DNA from: Escherichia phage MET-P1-301
Sequence record: PV700625
Reading direction: 5' to 3' (one strand)
DNA: 64,000 nucleotides
The first letter of the stretch is position 1. The number at the start of each line of letters is the position of its first letter. Position numbers and translations under genes: made by a program. Positions 46,607 to 52,148 of this stretch are shown one piece after another. The notes beneath the pieces are model-generated. The model worked only from the letters and a program-made list of their open reading frames with translations. It did not search any database and was not told the origin of the DNA.

Positions 46607-46682
46607 TGGAGAATCCGAAGGGACTCGAACCCTTATAAACCTGTTTTGCAGACAGGCACATAGCCATTTCTGTCACGGATTC
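46607..46682 (-). tRNA. tRNA-Cys (anticodon GCA)
   Basis: Cloverleaf: acceptor GAATCCG/CGGATTC, anticodon stem CCTGT/ACAGG, loop CTGCAAA, T-loop TTCGAGT, CCA encoded. Confidence 0.85.
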
Positions 46683-46686
46683 AAAT

Positions 46687-46779
46687 TGGAGGAAGATACC
46701 AGACTTGAACTGGTACACCGATTTCTCAGCTACTGGCAGTTTAGCAAACTGCTCCCTTACCTTTTAGGGTTAATCTTCC
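46687..46779 (-). tRNA. tRNA-Ser (anticodon GCT)
   Basis: Acceptor GGAAGAT/ATCTTCC, anticodon stem GCAGT/ACTGC, loop TTGCTAA, long variable arm. Confidence 0.8.
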
Positions 46780-46780
46780 A

Positions 46781-47514
46781 TTATTTCTGTAATGCGTTCT
46801 TCATTTCTGGTGTTGCAATAGTGTCAATTACACCAGTTTTACAAGCATCATCAAACCAGTCTGGTAAGATACCTGCTAAGAACCCATTGATATTCGTTTT
46901 AAGGTACTCTGCAATAAGGGCAGCTTCTTCTTCAATCATCTGCACAACTTCATCTGCATAAGCTGTAATCTTCGAGATACCTTCATTAATCTTACTAACA
47001 GCTTGGTTAGCTAAATCAGAAATAGTATCAAGACCTTTGTCAATAGCGTCTTGTAAGTCACTTAATACATCATTAACACCGTCTAGTGCACTGTTAATCG
47101 TATCAATAGCTTTTTGACCATACTCTGTAGCAACACCCATAATACCACTAAATGGTGTACAGCCAACTTGTTCACCTGCTGCACCCATAACATTAGAATA
47201 ACCTTTTGCTACCTGCATACGTGATGAAAACTCATCAATGGACTTTTGACCGTAATCTGTCAGTGTTTTGGTAGTTGATGTAGTGCTTGTCAGACTCGTG
47301 GTAAAGCTGTTAAGCAGAACTGTTGTAAGTCCAGCAGCAACAAGCTTATCTTTTACTGTAGGGTCTGATACAGAACTAATAGAGCTTACAAGTGATGTGG
47401 AGGCAGCTACGGTTCCACCGAGAACTGCTGCACCAGTAATAAGGGGTTAGAAAACCCTTTACCAGTTTTTAAGAGATTAAAAATCTCCTTACCTTGTTCT
47501 GTCATCTCTTTCAT
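46781..47514 (-). CDS. hypothetical Ala/Thr/Ser-rich protein (apparently frameshifted)
   Basis: ORF 46781-47218 continues upstream in-frame to about 47440 and links to ATG 47514 across one frame change. Confidence 0.4.
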
Positions 47515-47530
47515 TAAGCACCTTTGAAAT

Positions 47531-47607
47531 TGGTAGTCCAGTGGGATTTGAACCCTCTTCTCATGTTTTTCAGACACGCGCTTTAACCATATAAGCTACT
47601 TGGACTA
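47531..47607 (-). tRNA. tRNA-Phe (anticodon GAA)
   Basis: Acceptor TAGTCCA/TGGACTA, anticodon stem CGTGT/ACATG, loop CTGAAAA; D-arm register uncertain. Confidence 0.65.
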
Positions 47608-47612
47608 TAAAT

Positions 47613-47688
47613 TGGGGTGACCTACGGGATTTGAACCCGTATAGACCATGTTCACAGCATGGGTCATTACCATTTATGATAAGGCCAC
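47613..47688 (-). tRNA. tRNA-His (anticodon GTG)
   Basis: Anticodon stem CCATG/CATGG, loop CTGTGAA, T-loop TTCAAAT, CCA encoded. Confidence 0.8.
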
Positions 47689-47719
47689 ATTTAAGGACTC
47701 TCGTAAGAATCCTTAGAAG

Positions 47720-47795
47720 TGGCAGCGGCATAAGGATTTGAACCTTAATAAGACAGCTTCAGAGACTGCTGCATTGCCAGTTATGCTATACCGCT
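47720..47795 (-). tRNA. tRNA-Gln (anticodon CTG)
   Basis: D-stem GCAT/ATGC, anticodon loop CTCTGAA with G-U closing pairs, T-arm TAAGG/CCTTA. Confidence 0.6.
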
Positions 47796-47800
47796 AAATT

Positions 47801-47879
47801 TGGTACTCCATATCGGATTCGAACCGATACATAACACAGATTTTAAGTCTGGCCTCTCTGCCAATTGGAGTAATGGAGC
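47801..47879 (-). tRNA. tRNA with anticodon TAA (Leu-type anticodon, short variable arm)
   Basis: Acceptor and T-arm (ATCGG-TTCGAAT-CCGAT) clear; anticodon loop CTTAAAA; variable region only about 7 nt. Confidence 0.5.
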
Positions 47880-47881
47880 AT

Positions 47882-47956
47882 TGGCGGGGATGTTGGAATT
47901 GAACCAACTTCTTCGATTTCAAAGACCGAGGTTTTAACCTTGTAAACTAATCCCCT
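47882..47956 (-). tRNA. tRNA-Gln (anticodon TTG)
   Basis: D-stem GTTT/AAAC, anticodon stem TCGGT/ATCGA, loop CTTTGAA, T-arm GTTGG/CCAAC. Confidence 0.7.
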
Positions 47957-47964
47957 TTAAATCT

Positions 47965-48522
47965 TTACTTTCTCAGTGGATGAATAAAGAATGCCAACAT
48001 AATTCTTTCCCTTGAGAATGCTCTTTCTTCTGGGACAACACTTTTTAGTTTCCATCCAATATAAATTCTCCAGTAAAATTGTTTACCAAAGATTTTAATT
48101 GATGGGATAAAAGCGAATAATCCCCAAGCATTACTGTTCCACATTAGGAGATAACCTGTCTGATTATCTTCAGGGTCAGAACTTACGTTGATATTACCTT
48201 TCCACTTAGTAACATCTTTTACATCTCTCCCTAATACATGGTAAGAGAAGTTATAAGCTTTGTTTCTCCAGAGCCATCCGACTCTTTGCATGTAGACACC
48301 TAGTTTACCAATCCATCTAATATTAGTCCATCTTTTAACGTGACCTTCATCACCATCAATTGGGTTGTCATAAGTTTCCATCCATCTGAACCCGAAAGGT
48401 AGATGTCCTTTCTTCTCACTGTAGAATGGAACTACGAAAGGTGCTAAGATAACTGCTAAGATTGCTGCAAATGGCTCTAACAAAGCTAAGAAAATCCATG
48501 AAGCATACTTCAAATATCTCAT
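47965..48522 (-). CDS. hypothetical membrane protein inside tRNA cluster
   Basis: 185 aa; N-terminal hydrophobic stretch WIFLALLEPFAAILAVILAPFVVPF. Confidence 0.5.
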   Translation of the reverse strand: MRYLKYASWIFLALLEPFAAILAVILAPFVVPFYSEKKGHLPFGFRWMETYDNPIDGDEGHVKRWTNIRWIGKLGVYMQRVGWLWRNKAYNFSYHVLGRDVKDVTKWKGNINVSSDPEDNQTGYLLMWNSNAWGLFAFIPSIKIFGKQFYWRIYIGWKLKSVVPEERAFSRERIMLAFFIHPLRK

Positions 48523-48541
48523 CTAAATAGCCTCTTTAAAT

Positions 48542-48617
48542 TGGCGCAGGATAAGGGATTCGAACCCCTATTAACAGCTTCGTAGACTGTTGCTCTATCC
48601 ATTTGAACTAATCCTGC
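48542..48617 (-). tRNA. tRNA-Arg (anticodon ACG)
   Basis: Acceptor GCAGGAT/ATCCTGC, anticodon stem ACAGT/GCTGT, loop CTACGAA. Confidence 0.8.
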
Positions 48618-48622
48618 AAAAT

Positions 48623-48700
48623 TGGTGTTCCAAGACGGATTCGAACCGTCACTAGTACAAGGTTTGAGCTTGCATCCTCTACCAATTGGGATACTGGAAC
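48623..48700 (-). tRNA. tRNA with anticodon CAA (Leu-type anticodon, short variable arm)
   Basis: T-arm GACGG-TTCGAAT-CCGTC, anticodon stem GCAAG/CTTGT, loop CTCAAAC; variable region about 6 nt. Confidence 0.5.
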
Positions 48701-51132: not shown

Positions 51133-51137
51133 ATTAC

Positions 51138-51273
51138 CAGACCGTTGTTTATCATCTTAAGTGCTACCATTACACCAACTCGACATCTGCCGAGTGAAGG
51201 AATCGAACCTTCGCCTTTTCTTTACCGGAGAAATAGATTGTTTAAGTTTTGCTGTAAACGGTCTTCTGTAAAT
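51138..51273. repeat. stem-loop repeat unit A (CCAGACCG ... TTTGCTGTAAACGGTCTTCTGTAAA)
   Basis: One of four copies; arms AGACCGTT/AACGGTCT pair; encloses the permuted tRNA-like module. Confidence 0.7.
51162..51234 (-). ncRNA. circularly permuted tRNA-like module (candidate Y-RNA-like or permuted tRNA)
   Basis: Minus strand 5-prime to 3-prime: UUUCU-CCGGUAA-AGAAA hairpin, AGGC, T-arm GAAGG-UUCGAUU-CCUUC, ACUCGGC-AGAU-GUCGAGU (7-bp acceptor-like stem closed by tetraloop), UG, D-arm GUGU-AAUGGUA-GCAC. Confidence 0.5.
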
Positions 51274-51282
51274 TTGTTGAGC

Positions 51283-51358
51283 CAGACCAAGTTTAAATTT
51301 TCAAAATTAAATTGGCTTGAAATTTCATACATTCTTGCTGTATTTGGTCTTCTGCTCC
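51283..51358. repeat. stem-loop repeat unit (CCAGACCA ... TTGCTGTATTTGGTCTTCTG)
   Basis: Arms AGACCAA/TTGGTCT pair, with compensatory change relative to copy A. Confidence 0.65.
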
Positions 51359-51416
51359 TTTAAAGGATACTCGTGAGAACCCTTTAAGGGAGGGGCTAAA
51401 TAGCCCTCTCAAAATT

Positions 51417-51494
51417 GGCGGTTACGAAGGGATTTGAACCCTCATCATCTCCCGTGACAGGGGAGTATTTTAACCAGATTAAACTACATAACCT
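51417..51494 (-). tRNA. tRNA-Asp (anticodon GTC)
   Basis: Perfect anticodon stem CTCCC/GGGAG, loop CTGTCAC. Confidence 0.85.
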
Positions 51495-51499
51495 TTATT

Positions 51500-51587
51500 G
51501 GTGTGCCGTGTAGGAGTCGAACCTACCGAGTCTCAATGACAAGGGATTTACAGTCCCCACCGCTACCATCTACGGGATAACGACACA
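51500..51587 (-). tRNA. tRNA-Tyr (anticodon GTA)
   Basis: Anticodon stem GGGGA/TCCCT, loop CTGTAAA, long variable arm (88 nt). Confidence 0.8.
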
Positions 51588-51656
51588 TTTAATTTCTATT
51601 CAGGCTAAGGACTTGCACCTTACAAATCGGTGAGCAATCGCTTCTCTCCTAAATTT

Positions 51657-51733
51657 GGCGGTTAGTCAGGGATTCGAACCCTGTGCCATTCGCTTAACAG
51701 GCGACCGCACATACCTTATGTGCTTCCTAACCA
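51657..51733 (-). tRNA. tRNA-Asn (anticodon GTT)
   Basis: D-stem GCAC/GTGC, anticodon loop CTGTTAA, T-arm CAGGG-TTCGAAT-CCCTG. Confidence 0.8.
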
Positions 51734-51746
51734 TGTTTAGTATTAC

Positions 51747-51816
51747 CAGACCGTATCTTTCAATTTTTTCCGCTAAAAATTTCATTAAATTTTGCTGTAA
51801 ACGGTCTTCTGTAAAT
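51747..51816. repeat. stem-loop repeat unit (CCAGACCG ... TTTTGCTGTAAACGGTCTTCTGTAAA)
   Basis: Arms AGACCGT/ACGGTCT pair; immediately downstream of the tRNA at 51819. Confidence 0.65.
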
Positions 51817-51818
51817 TT

Positions 51819-51895
51819 GGAGGCGGGTGCAGGAGTCGAACCTGCCGATACCATGCTAATGAGACATGTGAGACGCCCTTTCTCTATACCCGCAA
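51819..51895 (-). tRNA. tRNA with anticodon CAT (Met, initiator or Ile-lysidine type)
   Basis: D-stem GAGA/TCTC, anticodon stem CATGT/GCATG, loop CTCATTA (unusual U at position 37). Confidence 0.6.
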
Positions 51896-51906
51896 TTCTT
51901 AATGAC

Positions 51907-51985
51907 CAGACCAAATCTCTTCTTTGTCCGATTTACCTTCAGATGAATAAGATTAAGTTTGCTGTAATTGGTCTTCTGTCAAAAC
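51907..51985. repeat. stem-loop repeat unit (CCAGACCA ... TTTGCTGTAATTGGTCTTCTG)
   Basis: Arms AGACCAA/TTGGTCT pair; immediately downstream of tRNA-Glu. Confidence 0.65.
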
Positions 51986-51986
51986 T

Positions 51987-52064
51987 GGCGTTCCAGAAGG
52001 GATTTGAACCCTCAGATATCCACTTTGAAAGAGTGGTGACTTTACCATTTTGTCTACTGGAACA
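51987..52064 (-). tRNA. tRNA-Glu (anticodon TTC)
   Basis: Perfect anticodon stem CCACT/AGTGG, loop CTTTCAA. Confidence 0.85.
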
Positions 52065-52071
52065 TTAATTT

Positions 52072-52148
52072 GGTCTCTGTTGGAGGACTTGAACCTCCGG
52101 CCTTACCGCCCCAAACGGAACGCTCTACCAAGCTGAGCTAAACAGAGA
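52072..52148 (-). tRNA. tRNA-Pro (anticodon TGG)
   Basis: D-stem GCTC/GAGC, anticodon loop TTTGGGG with G37, T-arm GGAGG-TTCAAGT-CCTCC. Confidence 0.8.

Follow-up and report, generated by a model that had tools for sequence, protein, structure and literature searches.

In large virulent phages such as T4 and T5, tRNA genes are co-oriented and tightly packed; transcription is by the host polymerase, processing depends on host RNase P, and small stable RNAs, small ORFs and homing endonucleases lie among the genes. Arrays of this kind have been described in Felix O1-like phages. For Felix O1 itself, 22 tRNAs were reported together with a codon comparison (PMC3185647). Shigella phage Sf14 has 26 tRNAs, which represent 19 amino acids and follow the order of the array described here; adaptation to the phage tRNA pool is greatest in its late genes, and an isotype model disagrees for 14 of the 26 tRNAs (PMC12482277). 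The ability of Felixounaviruses REP5-12 to infect Syn61-delta-3, a strain without serT and serU, was attributed to the viral tRNA-Ser(UGA) (PMC12269064, PMC13596443). In the Felixounavirus Bas63, tRNA genes proved largely dispensable on four laboratory E. coli strains, and a Ro60-like gene was reported to counter the ppl defence system (PMC11482910). Bacterial Ro60 (Rsr) is known together with the Y RNAs YrlA and YrlB (Chen et al. 2014).

We analysed a 64,000-nucleotide stretch of Escherichia phage MET-P1-301 (PV700625; hereafter the window). Its tRNA locus is a well-known, conserved Felix O1-like array, real but ordinary, and already published for Felix O1 and Sf14.

Results

On sequence grounds, the window is from a Felixounavirus (Felix O1-like, Ounavirinae), a virulent myovirus. 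It is 97.3% identical to Escherichia phage garuso across 99% of the region length and is matched by 348 phage records, 202 of them with coverage of at least 80%. The array lies between the Ro60-like gene and the terminase module. It shares synteny with the arrays annotated in garuso, Felix O1 and REP12, the last of which has the same array, and with those of more than 20 IMG/VR relatives; the complete IMG/VR Felixounavirus loci (n=16) hold 24-26 tRNAs each in unchanged order. Array and gene order were identical in all relatives examined, and set and order are kept across Felixounavirus, Mooglevirus, Suspvirus, Yersinia P778 and Pectobacterium Arno18.

A preliminary description had listed 27 tRNAs covering all 20 amino acids. 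ARAGORN called 26 of that 27, all on the minus strand as described (46607-52147; Table 1), but these represent 19 amino acids and not 20, because no Trp call was made in the array even with the threshold lowered to -ps80. The larger figures are valid only if a non-canonical Trp(CCA)-like element, missed by ARAGORN and Rfam, is counted. Rfam recovered 24 tRNAs at its gathering (curated) score, most with E-values between 1e-6 and 1e-12; tRNA-Tyr and one CAT tRNA fell below the cut-off. There are indeed two isoacceptors each for Gln, Lys, Arg and Ser and two CAT tRNAs, and in addition three Leu tRNAs (TAA, CAA, TAG) that had gone unmentioned. Spacing between the co-oriented genes is mostly 2-10 nt, and the CCA end is encoded in 24 of the 26 tRNAs and in the Trp-like gene. 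Cloverleaf helices are intact in nearly all of the 26, and compensatory changes occur across divergent genera where checked. The lowest covariance score is that of Ser-TGA (31 bits), and Leu-TAG is also low (39 bits).

Several tRNAs depart from host identity rules, and some may thus be poor substrates. tRNA-His is without G-1, tRNA-Tyr scores below the Rfam threshold and tRNA-Ser (GCT) has T73. In the CAT tRNA 'Met-B', the acceptor is initiator-like (GCGGG, mismatched at 1x72), yet position 37 is U, position 73 is T and the connector ahead of the D stem is 3 nt long. Both tRNA-Tyr and tRNA-His are marked as pseudogenes in the Felix O1 record.

Both sigma70-like promoter matches proposed earlier are present, and we add a third close to tRNA-Pro (Table 1). 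Strong matches thus lie both ahead of the array and within it. The -35 element of the match farthest upstream lies inside a 12-bp inverted repeat (52270-52301). Since the total of promoter-like matches in the region is no higher than expected from shuffled sequence, only quality and position support these sites.

The interleaved HNH endonuclease and hydrophobic protein are as first described, the latter belonging to DUF7338; several other large phages have homologues of it close to tRNA genes. Several ORFs, however, are broken in the window by single-nucleotide losses: the HNH gene at 50522, the DUF7217 gene at 47443 and the Ro60-like gene at 53166. A loss in a G run at 47886, relative to garuso, shortens the acceptor 3' strand of tRNA-Gln (TTG). 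About 20 such one-base homopolymer losses, breaking ORFs and one tRNA, occur in the window; those breaking interleaved ORFs in the window only look like sequencing errors. The HNH insertion is absent in many relatives, where the Lys, Met and Ile tRNAs are adjacent, and the Arg-TCT slot is variable: Felix O1 has an HNH gene there, and garuso and REP12 have another sequence ('tRNA-OTHER').

The structured elements noted between the tRNAs exist and include four Y-RNA-like stems (E1-E4), one of them with a permuted tRNA mimic. They adjoin a protein gene whose predicted model matches Ro60, and they matched no Rfam family.

The Trp(CCA)-like element must be the 27th gene of the preliminary description, real but non-canonical. 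It combines an 8-bp acceptor, a 4-bp T stem, G73 and an encoded CCA with a 9-nt insertion or linker, a 3-bp D stem (8-nt GG loop) and a CUCCAAA-type anticodon loop, which is invariant and lies next to an unpaired 31-39 position. It has no match to the Rfam tRNA model, reaches only 23 bits against Rfam tRNA-Sec and is annotated in none of 60 related records inspected. It is nonetheless a conserved cloverleaf-like RNA, supported by covariation in all four helices. Among relatives, the UCCAA core of the anticodon loop, G73 and the encoded CCA never vary, and most have A1-U72; together these make up the main identity elements for E. coli TrpRS. Close relatives segregate two anticodon-loop variants (positions 32 and 38), and this gene and another Trp(CCA) tRNA are mutually exclusive alternatives at the same slot. 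The homologue in PVP-SE1 carries the annotation tRNA-Trp. That gene (gt013, 81 nt) and its Av-05 homologue share with ours the acceptor and T stem lengths, an 8-9-nt linker, G73, CCA and a CUCCAAA loop flanked by the unpaired 31-39 position. The D hairpin differs, with a 6-bp stem and UGG triloop in place of the window's 3-bp stem and 8-nt loop, and overall identity is low beyond the anticodon and T arms.

GC3 is 0.32 in the phage against 0.53 in E. coli, and the anticodons match the phage's preference for A/T-ending codons. They form a 'minimal decoder' set in which each four-codon box is served by a single U34 tRNA. Phage/E. coli RSCU enrichment for cognates of the U34 tRNAs reaches 14x for AGA, 4.4x for CTA, 2.9x for CCA, 2.8x for TCA, 2.7x for ACA and 2.5x for TTA; the ratio is below 1 for ATC (0.62), AGC (0.40) and CAG (0.76), and the set includes their tRNAs. 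With liberal wobble, 59 of the 61 sense codons are readable (99.7% of the phage's codons), and only ATA and CGG, its two rarest, are never read. The share read is 75-99.7% according to the wobble rules assumed, and the abundant codons GGT, GTT, ACT, TCT, GCT and CCT are read only with broad U34 wobble. Together with the Felixounavirus assignment and the syntenic arrays, this bears out the initial view of a large, nearly translation-complete set in a big virulent phage.

Table 1. Features of the tRNA locus, in order from its upstream end (window positions)
Feature	Position	Strand	Support or remark
Ro60-like gene	52312-53726	-	TROVE+vWA fold; DUF2828+DUF7788; directly upstream of array
Promoter match	52265-52293	-	TTGACA-17-TAATAT (10/12); after Ro60-like gene stop, upstream of tRNA-Pro
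Promoter match	52174-52203	-	TTGACA-18-TAAAGT, TG extension; 27 nt upstream of tRNA-Pro
tRNA-Pro (TGG)	52071-52147	-	ARAGORN, Rfam
tRNA-Glu (TTC)	51986-52063	-	ARAGORN, Rfam
E1, Y-RNA-like, not a tRNA	51903-51981	-	basal two-helix stem with bulges; UUACAGCAA motif
tRNA (CAT) 'Met-B'	51818-51894	-	ARAGORN; under Rfam threshold
E2, Y-RNA-like	51743-51814	-	
tRNA-Asn (GTT)	51656-51732	-	ARAGORN, Rfam
tRNA-Tyr (GTA)	51499-51586	-	ARAGORN; under Rfam threshold; class II, 15-nt variable arm
tRNA-Asp (GTC)	51416-51493	-	ARAGORN, Rfam
E3, Y-RNA-like	51279-51357	-	
E4, Y-RNA-like	51134-51271	-	permuted tRNA-like domain: T arm 51196-51212, closed acceptor-like hairpin 51178-51195, D arm 51160-51176
tRNA-Lys (TTT)	50913-50988	-	ARAGORN, Rfam
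tRNA (CAT) 'Met-A'	50758-50834	-	ARAGORN, Rfam; elongator-like, paired G1-C72
HNH endonuclease gene	50256-50740	-	PHROG matches
tRNA-Ile (GAT)	50187-50262	-	ARAGORN, Rfam
Internal promoter match	50143-50171	-	TTGACA-17-TATAGT (11/12)
tRNA-Arg (TCT)	49864-49940	-	ARAGORN, Rfam; variable slot
Trp(CCA) tRNA-like gene	49639-49721	-	83 nt; conservation, covariation
tRNA-Ser (TGA)	49536-49625	-	ARAGORN, Rfam; class II; 3' end encoded GCC-T, not CCA
tRNA-Leu (TAG)	49203-49280	-	ARAGORN, Rfam; 5-nt variable loop
tRNA-Lys (CTT)	49120-49195	-	ARAGORN, Rfam
tRNA-Ala (TGC)	49038-49113	-	ARAGORN, Rfam
tRNA-Gly (TCC)	48957-49031	-	ARAGORN, Rfam
tRNA-Thr (TGT)	48874-48949	-	ARAGORN, Rfam
tRNA-Val (TAC)	48702-48776	-	ARAGORN, Rfam
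tRNA-Leu (CAA)	48623-48700	-	ARAGORN, Rfam; 6-nt variable loop
tRNA-Arg (ACG)	48542-48617	-	ARAGORN, Rfam
DUF7338 protein gene	47965-48522	-	PHROG 2143; hydrophobic N-terminus
tRNA-Gln (TTG)	47883-47956	-	ARAGORN, Rfam
tRNA-Leu (TAA)	47801-47879	-	ARAGORN, Rfam; 7-nt variable loop
tRNA-Gln (CTG)	47720-47795	-	ARAGORN, Rfam
tRNA-His (GTG)	47613-47688	-	ARAGORN, Rfam; C73, no encoded G-1
tRNA-Phe (GAA)	47531-47606	-	ARAGORN, Rfam
DUF7217 protein gene	46781-47514	-	Felix O1 ORF49
tRNA-Ser (GCT)	46687-46779	-	ARAGORN, Rfam; class II
tRNA-Cys (GCA)	46607-46682	-	ARAGORN, Rfam; final array gene
Terminator-like hairpin, T run	46428-46445	-	160 nt downstream of tRNA-Cys

Discussion

Very probably, this conserved array gives the phage a near self-sufficient supply of decoders. 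Host RNA polymerase would transcribe it into polycistronic precursors, from which host RNase P and exonucleases would release the tRNAs, to be charged by host synthetases. AT-rich phage genes would then be served regardless of the condition of the host's tRNA pool. The array may be modular between strains, through HNH homing endonuclease genes and alternative tRNA alleles. Published work on close relatives supports function of at least tRNA-Ser(UGA).

It is quite possible, if not our preferred reading, that the Trp(CCA) element does no decoding and is instead a tRNA mimic, a decoy or a further Y-like RNA partner of the Ro60-like protein, in which case the array serves 19 amino acids. The failure of ARAGORN and the Rfam tRNA model to recognise it, the 9-nt insertion before a 3-bp D stem, the 8/4 helix arrangement, the unpaired 31-39 position, its absence from the annotations inspected and the presence of a genuine tRNA mimic (E4) in the array would suit such a role. 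Against this stand the retained TrpRS identity elements, the covariation of all four helices, the PVP-SE1 annotation and the mutual exclusion with another Trp(CCA) tRNA at one slot; the element is also without the E-type basal stem.

Alternatively, the array could merely patch codon bias, so that tRNAs for the host-rare codons AGA, CTA, TTA, CCA, ACA and TCA matter and the others are carried along neutrally through linkage. Exactly these codons have the largest phage/host RSCU ratios, and single tRNA genes are dispensable in Bas63 (PMC11482910). We find this explanation doubtful, as the whole set and its order persist across genera, the conserved set includes tRNAs for the underused ATC, AGC and CAG, and a Trp(CCA) gene is kept in either of two forms though TGG has no synonymous bias.

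A role in counter-defence, with cleavage-escaping variants replacing host tRNAs cut by anticodon nucleases or by retron, PARIS or PrrC-type systems, seems unlikely to account for the array. Analysis of the same 26 tRNAs in Sf14 ruled out anticodon-nuclease escape as the principal explanation (PMC12482277), and a complete set for 19-20 amino acids far exceeds the few tRNA species known as targets. The idea in general form has been published for phage T5 (van den Berg 2023, as cited in PMC11482910), and the two segregating anticodon-loop variants of the Trp-like gene and the neighbouring Ro60-like gene, reported as anti-ppl in Bas63 (PMC11482910), are consistent with it. That many calls are decaying pseudo-tRNAs in a largely non-functional array is highly improbable: the Felix O1 pseudogene flags and the low scores of Ser-TGA and Leu-TAG would fit, but nearly all helices are intact, the genes are kept across divergent genera with compensatory changes where checked, and functional evidence exists for the lowest-scoring of them, tRNA-Ser(UGA) (PMC12269064, PMC13596443).

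Read as a conserved decoder array, the locus resembles T4/T5-type clusters in its co-oriented, packed tRNAs amid small RNAs, ORFs and homing endonucleases; T4 has 8 tRNAs, whereas the window has a near-complete decoder set in which the Leu tRNAs are without a long variable arm. As in bacterial Ro60 (Rsr)/Yrl systems, a Ro60-fold protein adjoins several small RNAs closed by a bulged terminal helix, and E4, like YrlA, is ordered T arm, closed acceptor, D arm. Unlike in those systems, the Y-like elements sit within a tRNA array, the protein's sequence places it in DUF2828+DUF7788 and not in Pfam TROVE, and the conserved single-stranded motif is UUACAGCAA, the published GNCGAAN0-1G motif of Yrl RNAs not being evident in the window's elements. 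Closest of all are the arrays of Felix O1, garuso, REP12, Bas63 and Sf14, which have the same genes, order and place (between the Ro60-like 'RNA-binding protein' gene and terminase). Felix O1-type arrays are 95-97% identical to the window in DNA and have the DUF7338 and DUF7217 ORFs and HNH insertions in common with it. The differences are at strain level only: the window has one HNH gene and Felix O1 three, and the variable slot is occupied here by Arg-TCT.

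Results

Run over the whole window, ARAGORN identified 26 tRNA genes, all within the minus-strand array and none elsewhere, that together cover 19 amino acids. As stated in the preliminary description, they include two isoacceptors each for Gln, Lys, Arg and Ser and two tRNAs with a CAT anticodon; there are also three Leu tRNAs. That description had claimed 27 genes for all 20 amino acids, and the automated count is not far below it. Parsed segment by segment, nearly all 26 tRNAs have intact acceptor, anticodon and T helices, and the CCA end is encoded in 24 of them. The Rfam gathering score of RF00005 is reached by 24/26; the two below it are Tyr and one of the CAT tRNAs (Met-B), both of which tRNAscan-SE called in Felix O1 (Cove scores 39.9 and 28.9; PMC3185647).

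Coordinates of the features in and around the tRNA array
Feature	Position	Strand	Remarks
tRNA array	46607-52147	-	
tRNA-His	47613-47688	-	
tRNA-Leu (three genes)	47801-47879; 48623-48700; 49203-49280	-	
DUF7338 protein	47965-48522	-	
Long folded spacers	49941-50186; 49722-49863; 49281-49535; 48777-48873; 50835-50912	-	
Trp-like gene	49639-49721	-	ATGGGACG-ATGTTAAGA-CTC-TAAGGCAT-GAG-C-AACGG-CCTCCAAAA-CCGTT-TCAAA-GGGG-TTCAACT-CCTC-CGTCCCAT-G-CCA
tRNA-Arg(TCT) slot	49864-49940	-	
Met-A (CAT)	50758-50834	-	
E4	51134-51271	-	
Partial Rfam tRNA match	51195-51245		in E4
E3	51279-51357	-	
tRNA-Tyr	51499-51586		
E2	51743-51814	-	
Met-B (CAT)	51818-51894	-	
E1	51903-51981	-	
Sigma70-like matches	52293-52265; 50171-50143; 52203-52174		
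Inverted repeat	52270-52301	-	12 bp, AAAGGGTATT...AATACCCTTT
Ro60-like gene	52312-53726	-	
One-base homopolymer losses	44148-54488		examples: 45036, 47443, 47886, 50522, 53166
71-nt Trp(CCA) tRNA in other loci	L011:5161-5231; L014:5161-5231; L022:5235-5305		reduced D arm

Nucleotide identity of the region is 97.3% with Escherichia phage garuso and 96.3% with Salmonella phage Felix O1; 348 phage records match it. In the records of garuso, Felix O1 and REP12, the same array lies in the same place, with a gene labelled 'RNA-binding / vWFA' (the Ro60-like gene) upstream and a small ORF, the terminase gene and the portal gene downstream. The tRNA complement and the order Pro-Glu-Met-Asn-Tyr-Asp-Lys-Met-Ile-...-Ser-Cys are common to the window and its relatives, and the order published for the Sf14 array matches (Table 2 of PMC12482277). 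Among 31 IMG/VR loci, which were collected via the DUF7338 protein encoded within the array, all 16 full-length Felixounavirus loci scanned have 24-26 tRNAs in unchanged order. The order is partly rearranged in the more distant Yersinia phage P778 (26 tRNAs) and Pectobacterium phage Arno18 (24 tRNAs). The slot of tRNA-Arg(TCT) behaves as a variable cassette: it holds a different sequence, labelled 'tRNA-OTHER', in REP12 and garuso and an HNH gene in Felix O1, and is missing in some IMG/VR relatives.

Approximately 20 homopolymer runs of 5-6 bases are each one base shorter than in garuso. Owing to these losses, the terminase, DUF7217, HNH and Ro60-like ORFs are split and the acceptor of tRNA-Gln(TTG) is shortened. 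We rejected pseudogenes and programmed frameshifts as explanations of the split ORFs because every break coincides with a one-base homopolymer loss relative to garuso. The losses seem to be artefacts of sequencing or assembly, not biology, and their pattern is typical of such error.

Several of the tRNAs are peculiar. In place of the long variable arm of bacterial tRNA-Leu, all three Leu tRNAs have a loop of 5-7 nt; A73 and the E. coli-like AAUUGGUAGA D loop are retained. In tRNA-His, position 73 is C and position -1 is T, so that G-1, which E. coli HisRS requires, is not encoded; the Felix O1 record flags the gene as a pseudogene. Met-B has a conserved unpaired 1-72 position (UxC in the window, AxA in P778, AxC in Arno18), G2-C71 and C3-G70, and an acceptor, GCGGG(G/T), like that of E. 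coli fMet. Of the initiator G-C trio (29-41, 30-40, 31-39) it has G30-C40 only, and it carries U37, T73 in place of A73 and a 3-nt connector. With low confidence, we regard Met-B as initiator-like and possibly an atypical initiator; Met-A, the other CAT tRNA, is elongator-like. No positive evidence pointed to a lysidine-type tRNA-Ile2 for either, and isotype scores in Sf14 favour Met over Ile2 for both (PMC12482277).

The array is interrupted by protein-coding genes. An HNH endonuclease gene, already recognized in the preliminary description and matching PHROG HNH families, separates a CAT tRNA from tRNA-Ile. It is missing in many relatives, in which Lys-Met-Ile are contiguous; such patchy presence is as expected of a homing endonuclease. 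Two further gaps are filled by DUF7338 and DUF7217 proteins. Homologues of the DUF7338 protein, 58-62% identical, occur in phages of 120-180 kb (loci L026-L033), usually about 1-2 kb or less from a tRNA-Met gene, which hints at a recurrent association of this protein with the tRNA genes of phages. Five long spacers form very stable folds (-68.7 kcal/mol for one of 246 nt, -72.6 kcal/mol for one of 255 nt) and contain neither tRNA features nor Rfam matches above threshold. We dismissed weak tmRNA matches at 49941-50176 as noise, given Rfam scores of 15.7-20.3 bits, well under the cut-off of 47.

What the preliminary description counted as a 27th gene, for a 20th amino acid, is absent from the automated set but corresponds to a real, non-canonical Trp-like gene of 83 nt. 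ARAGORN returned no Trp tRNA in the window, either by default or at -ps80, where the extra output consisted solely of spurious permuted-tmRNA calls. The gene does not match the Rfam tRNA model, and its best Rfam score is 23 bits (E 0.47), against tRNA-Sec. It nevertheless occurs in 235 phage records at 76-100% identity, and among the matches listed 0/60 carry a tRNA annotation.

We aligned the gene with its homologues from Felix O1, Moogle, Sf14, EcSzw-2, Sf17, P778, Arno18 and Av-05. Across the cloverleaf, 94.7% of cells are paired and seven pairs have changed on both sides, and compensatory changes support four helices. The anticodon stem is 100% paired, with compensatory changes in four of its five pairs. 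The observed pairing score was not equalled in 500 shuffles, and slid controls pair at 32-54%. The 7-nt anticodon loop is C-U-C-C-A-A-A with U33, the T loop fits TTCRANY, and G73 is followed by an encoded CCA; a manual structural parse showed the UCCAA anticodon core to be invariant among the homologues. In place of the canonical 7-bp acceptor, 2-nt connector, 4-bp D stem and 5-bp T stem, the gene has an 8-bp acceptor, a 9-nt linker, a 3-bp D stem with a GG loop and a 4-bp T stem (an 8/4 arrangement). The eighth acceptor pair covaries, being G8-C65 in Ounavirinae and U8-A65 in Escherichia phage Av-05 and PVP-SE1. Homologues of the Av-05 gene occur in Vequintavirinae phages, among them PVP-SE1, whose copy is annotated as an 81-nt tRNA-Trp and likewise is not called by ARAGORN.

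The window-type form is present in 20 Felixounavirus loci. In three others its place is taken by an alternative 71-nt Trp(CCA) tRNA, which ARAGORN recognizes. The forms exclude each other, as no Felixounavirus locus has both.

We compared the codon usage of the ORFs of the window with that of a 50-kb sample of E. coli K-12. The window has a G+C content of 39%, and GC3 is 0.32 in its phage ORFs compared to 0.53 in K-12. The anticodon set comprises one U34 tRNA per four-codon box together with G34 tRNAs in two-codon boxes, and the cognate codons of U34 tRNAs are those most enriched relative to E. coli (RSCU ratios: AGA 14, CTA 4.4, CCA 2.9, TCA 2.8, ACA 2.7, TTA 2.5, GGA 1.9, GCA 1.8). The share of phage codons that can be read depends on the wobble rules assumed: 74.6% for the 26 tRNAs under strict wobble, 90.3% if U34 also reads U in four-codon boxes, and 99.7% (59/61 codons) with full superwobble and the Trp-like gene. 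ATA and CGG, read under no rule, are the rarest sense codons of the phage (0.23% and 0.05%). Also conserved are tRNAs for codons that are rarer in the phage than in the host (ATC 0.62, AGC 0.40, CAG 0.76). Their conservation agrees better with a complete-set model than with one of pure rare-codon patching.

Other spacers of the array contain a 19-nt motif, AGAAGACCNNNTACAGCAA, with four copies in the window, all within the array, compared to 0.08 matches in shuffled sequence; every Felixounavirus locus also has four copies. An apparent occurrence in a distant relative (L024) was discarded as chance, as it lies in a coding-looking region and its 3' arm is missing. Each copy opens one of four elements, E1-E4, whose ends pair as [UUAC]-AGA-[AGACCNN]...[NNGGUCU]-G-[GUAA] and which share a bulged, covarying terminal helix and a UUACAGCAA motif. 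A comparison of 12 elements of this kind, taken from the window, Moogle, EcSzw-2 and P778, gave 97% pairing in the two-helix stem, with two-sided changes in 8 of 11 pairs. The search for the elements relied on the inner six pairs, which leaves only the outer helix and pair 16-25 as independent evidence; these are 96% paired, with compensatory changes in three of the four outer pairs. E4 encloses a T arm, a closed acceptor-like hairpin that covaries between the window and EcSzw-2, and a D arm. Rfam returned no Y RNA or YrlA match at E values up to 5. The 5' strands (ACAGAAGACC, and GCACAGGAC in P778) contain no exact match to the 5' motif GNCGAAN0-1G of Chen et al. 2014.

Directly upstream of the array, the Ro60-like gene encodes a protein with the Pfam domains DUF2828 and DUF7788, not TROVE. 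Its resemblance to Ro60 is visible by fold comparison only: searches of the PDB by single sequence and by profile, and of NCBIfam, found nothing, and an AlphaFold (AF2) model built on 36 homologues (pLDDT 86.8, pTM 0.87) matches Ro60, Rsr and the Ro60 of Thermus phage phiLo over its full length (Foldseek E 3e-8 to 6e-7, TM 0.54-0.63). Arno18 has neither the Ro60-like gene nor the E motif, a co-absence that may bear, indirectly, on binding of the E RNAs to the protein.

Discussion

Felix O1-type tRNA arrays have been in the literature since 2010, with 22 tRNAs reported in Felix O1 by tRNAscan-SE (PMC3185647), and more recently through work on REP phages on recoded E. coli and a computational analysis of Sf14 in 2025. 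The preliminary description was essentially right in what it observed, and its interpretation as a nearly translation-complete set is supported. The array is an already known feature, and the finding as stated there adds nothing new.

We conclude that the slot of the Trp-like gene is always occupied by a Trp(CCA) gene, consider it reasonable to count this gene as the 27th, and infer a possible role in decoding. The aberrant 8/4 tRNA-Trp(CCA), with its expanded D region, may be a working decoder, in which case these phages have tRNAs for 20 rather than the published 19 amino acids. The published figure probably misses a conserved, non-canonical tRNA-Trp that is invisible to standard scanners. 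This matters for models that assume a self-sufficient phage tRNA pool, and for genetic firewalls designed around the codons open to phage tRNAs.

The two sigma70-like promoters of the preliminary description are real consensus matches (10/12 upstream of the array, 11/12 within it), and there is a third; the number of promoter-like matches in the region is at the level of shuffled sequence. Felix O1 is without an RNA polymerase of its own (PMC3185647), which together with the sigma70-like promoters implies host transcription. Processing by host RNase P and exonucleases is implied by the encoded CCA ends and the 2-10-nt spacers. On established tRNA biology, host RNA polymerase would transcribe the array, and host RNase P and exonucleases would release the tRNAs. 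Around the -35 box of the first promoter, directly after the stop codon of the Ro60-like gene, lies the inverted repeat, which may serve as a terminator or an operator overlapping that promoter.

Published support for expression, processing and charging of Felixounavirus tRNAs appears to concern tRNA-Ser(UGA) only. Eight Felixounaviruses, REP5-12, infect Syn61-delta-3, which is without serT and serU; this was attributed to the viral tRNA-Ser(UGA), and part of the tRNA operon is triplicated in a REP12 escape mutant (PMC12269064, PMC13596443). The tRNA genes of Bas63 are mostly non-essential on four laboratory strains, which counts against an indispensable role (PMC11482910).

It may be that E1-E4 in the spacers are Y RNAs, E4 being a YrlA-like tRNA mimic, and that they assemble with the adjoining Ro60-like protein. 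We tentatively suggest, as a possibility that we do not favour outright, that the Trp(CCA) decoder and the Y RNAs with the Ro60-like protein belong to a single operon for translation supply and RNA surveillance or counter-defence. The order of arms in E4 is the permuted order of bacterial YrlA Y RNAs (PMC4201824). The PhageMaP preprint described the Bas63 homologue gp130 as Ro60-like and as countering the ppl defence system, and speculated that Y RNAs are to be found among the annotated tRNAs, without locating them (PMC11482910). The exact coordinates of our candidates make this 2024 hypothesis directly testable. The unannotated 8/4-type tRNA-Trp candidate and the putative Y-RNA-like elements mapped here go beyond the literature examined, and in contrast to the proposal of the preprint, our candidate Y RNAs sit in the spacers rather than among the annotated tRNAs.
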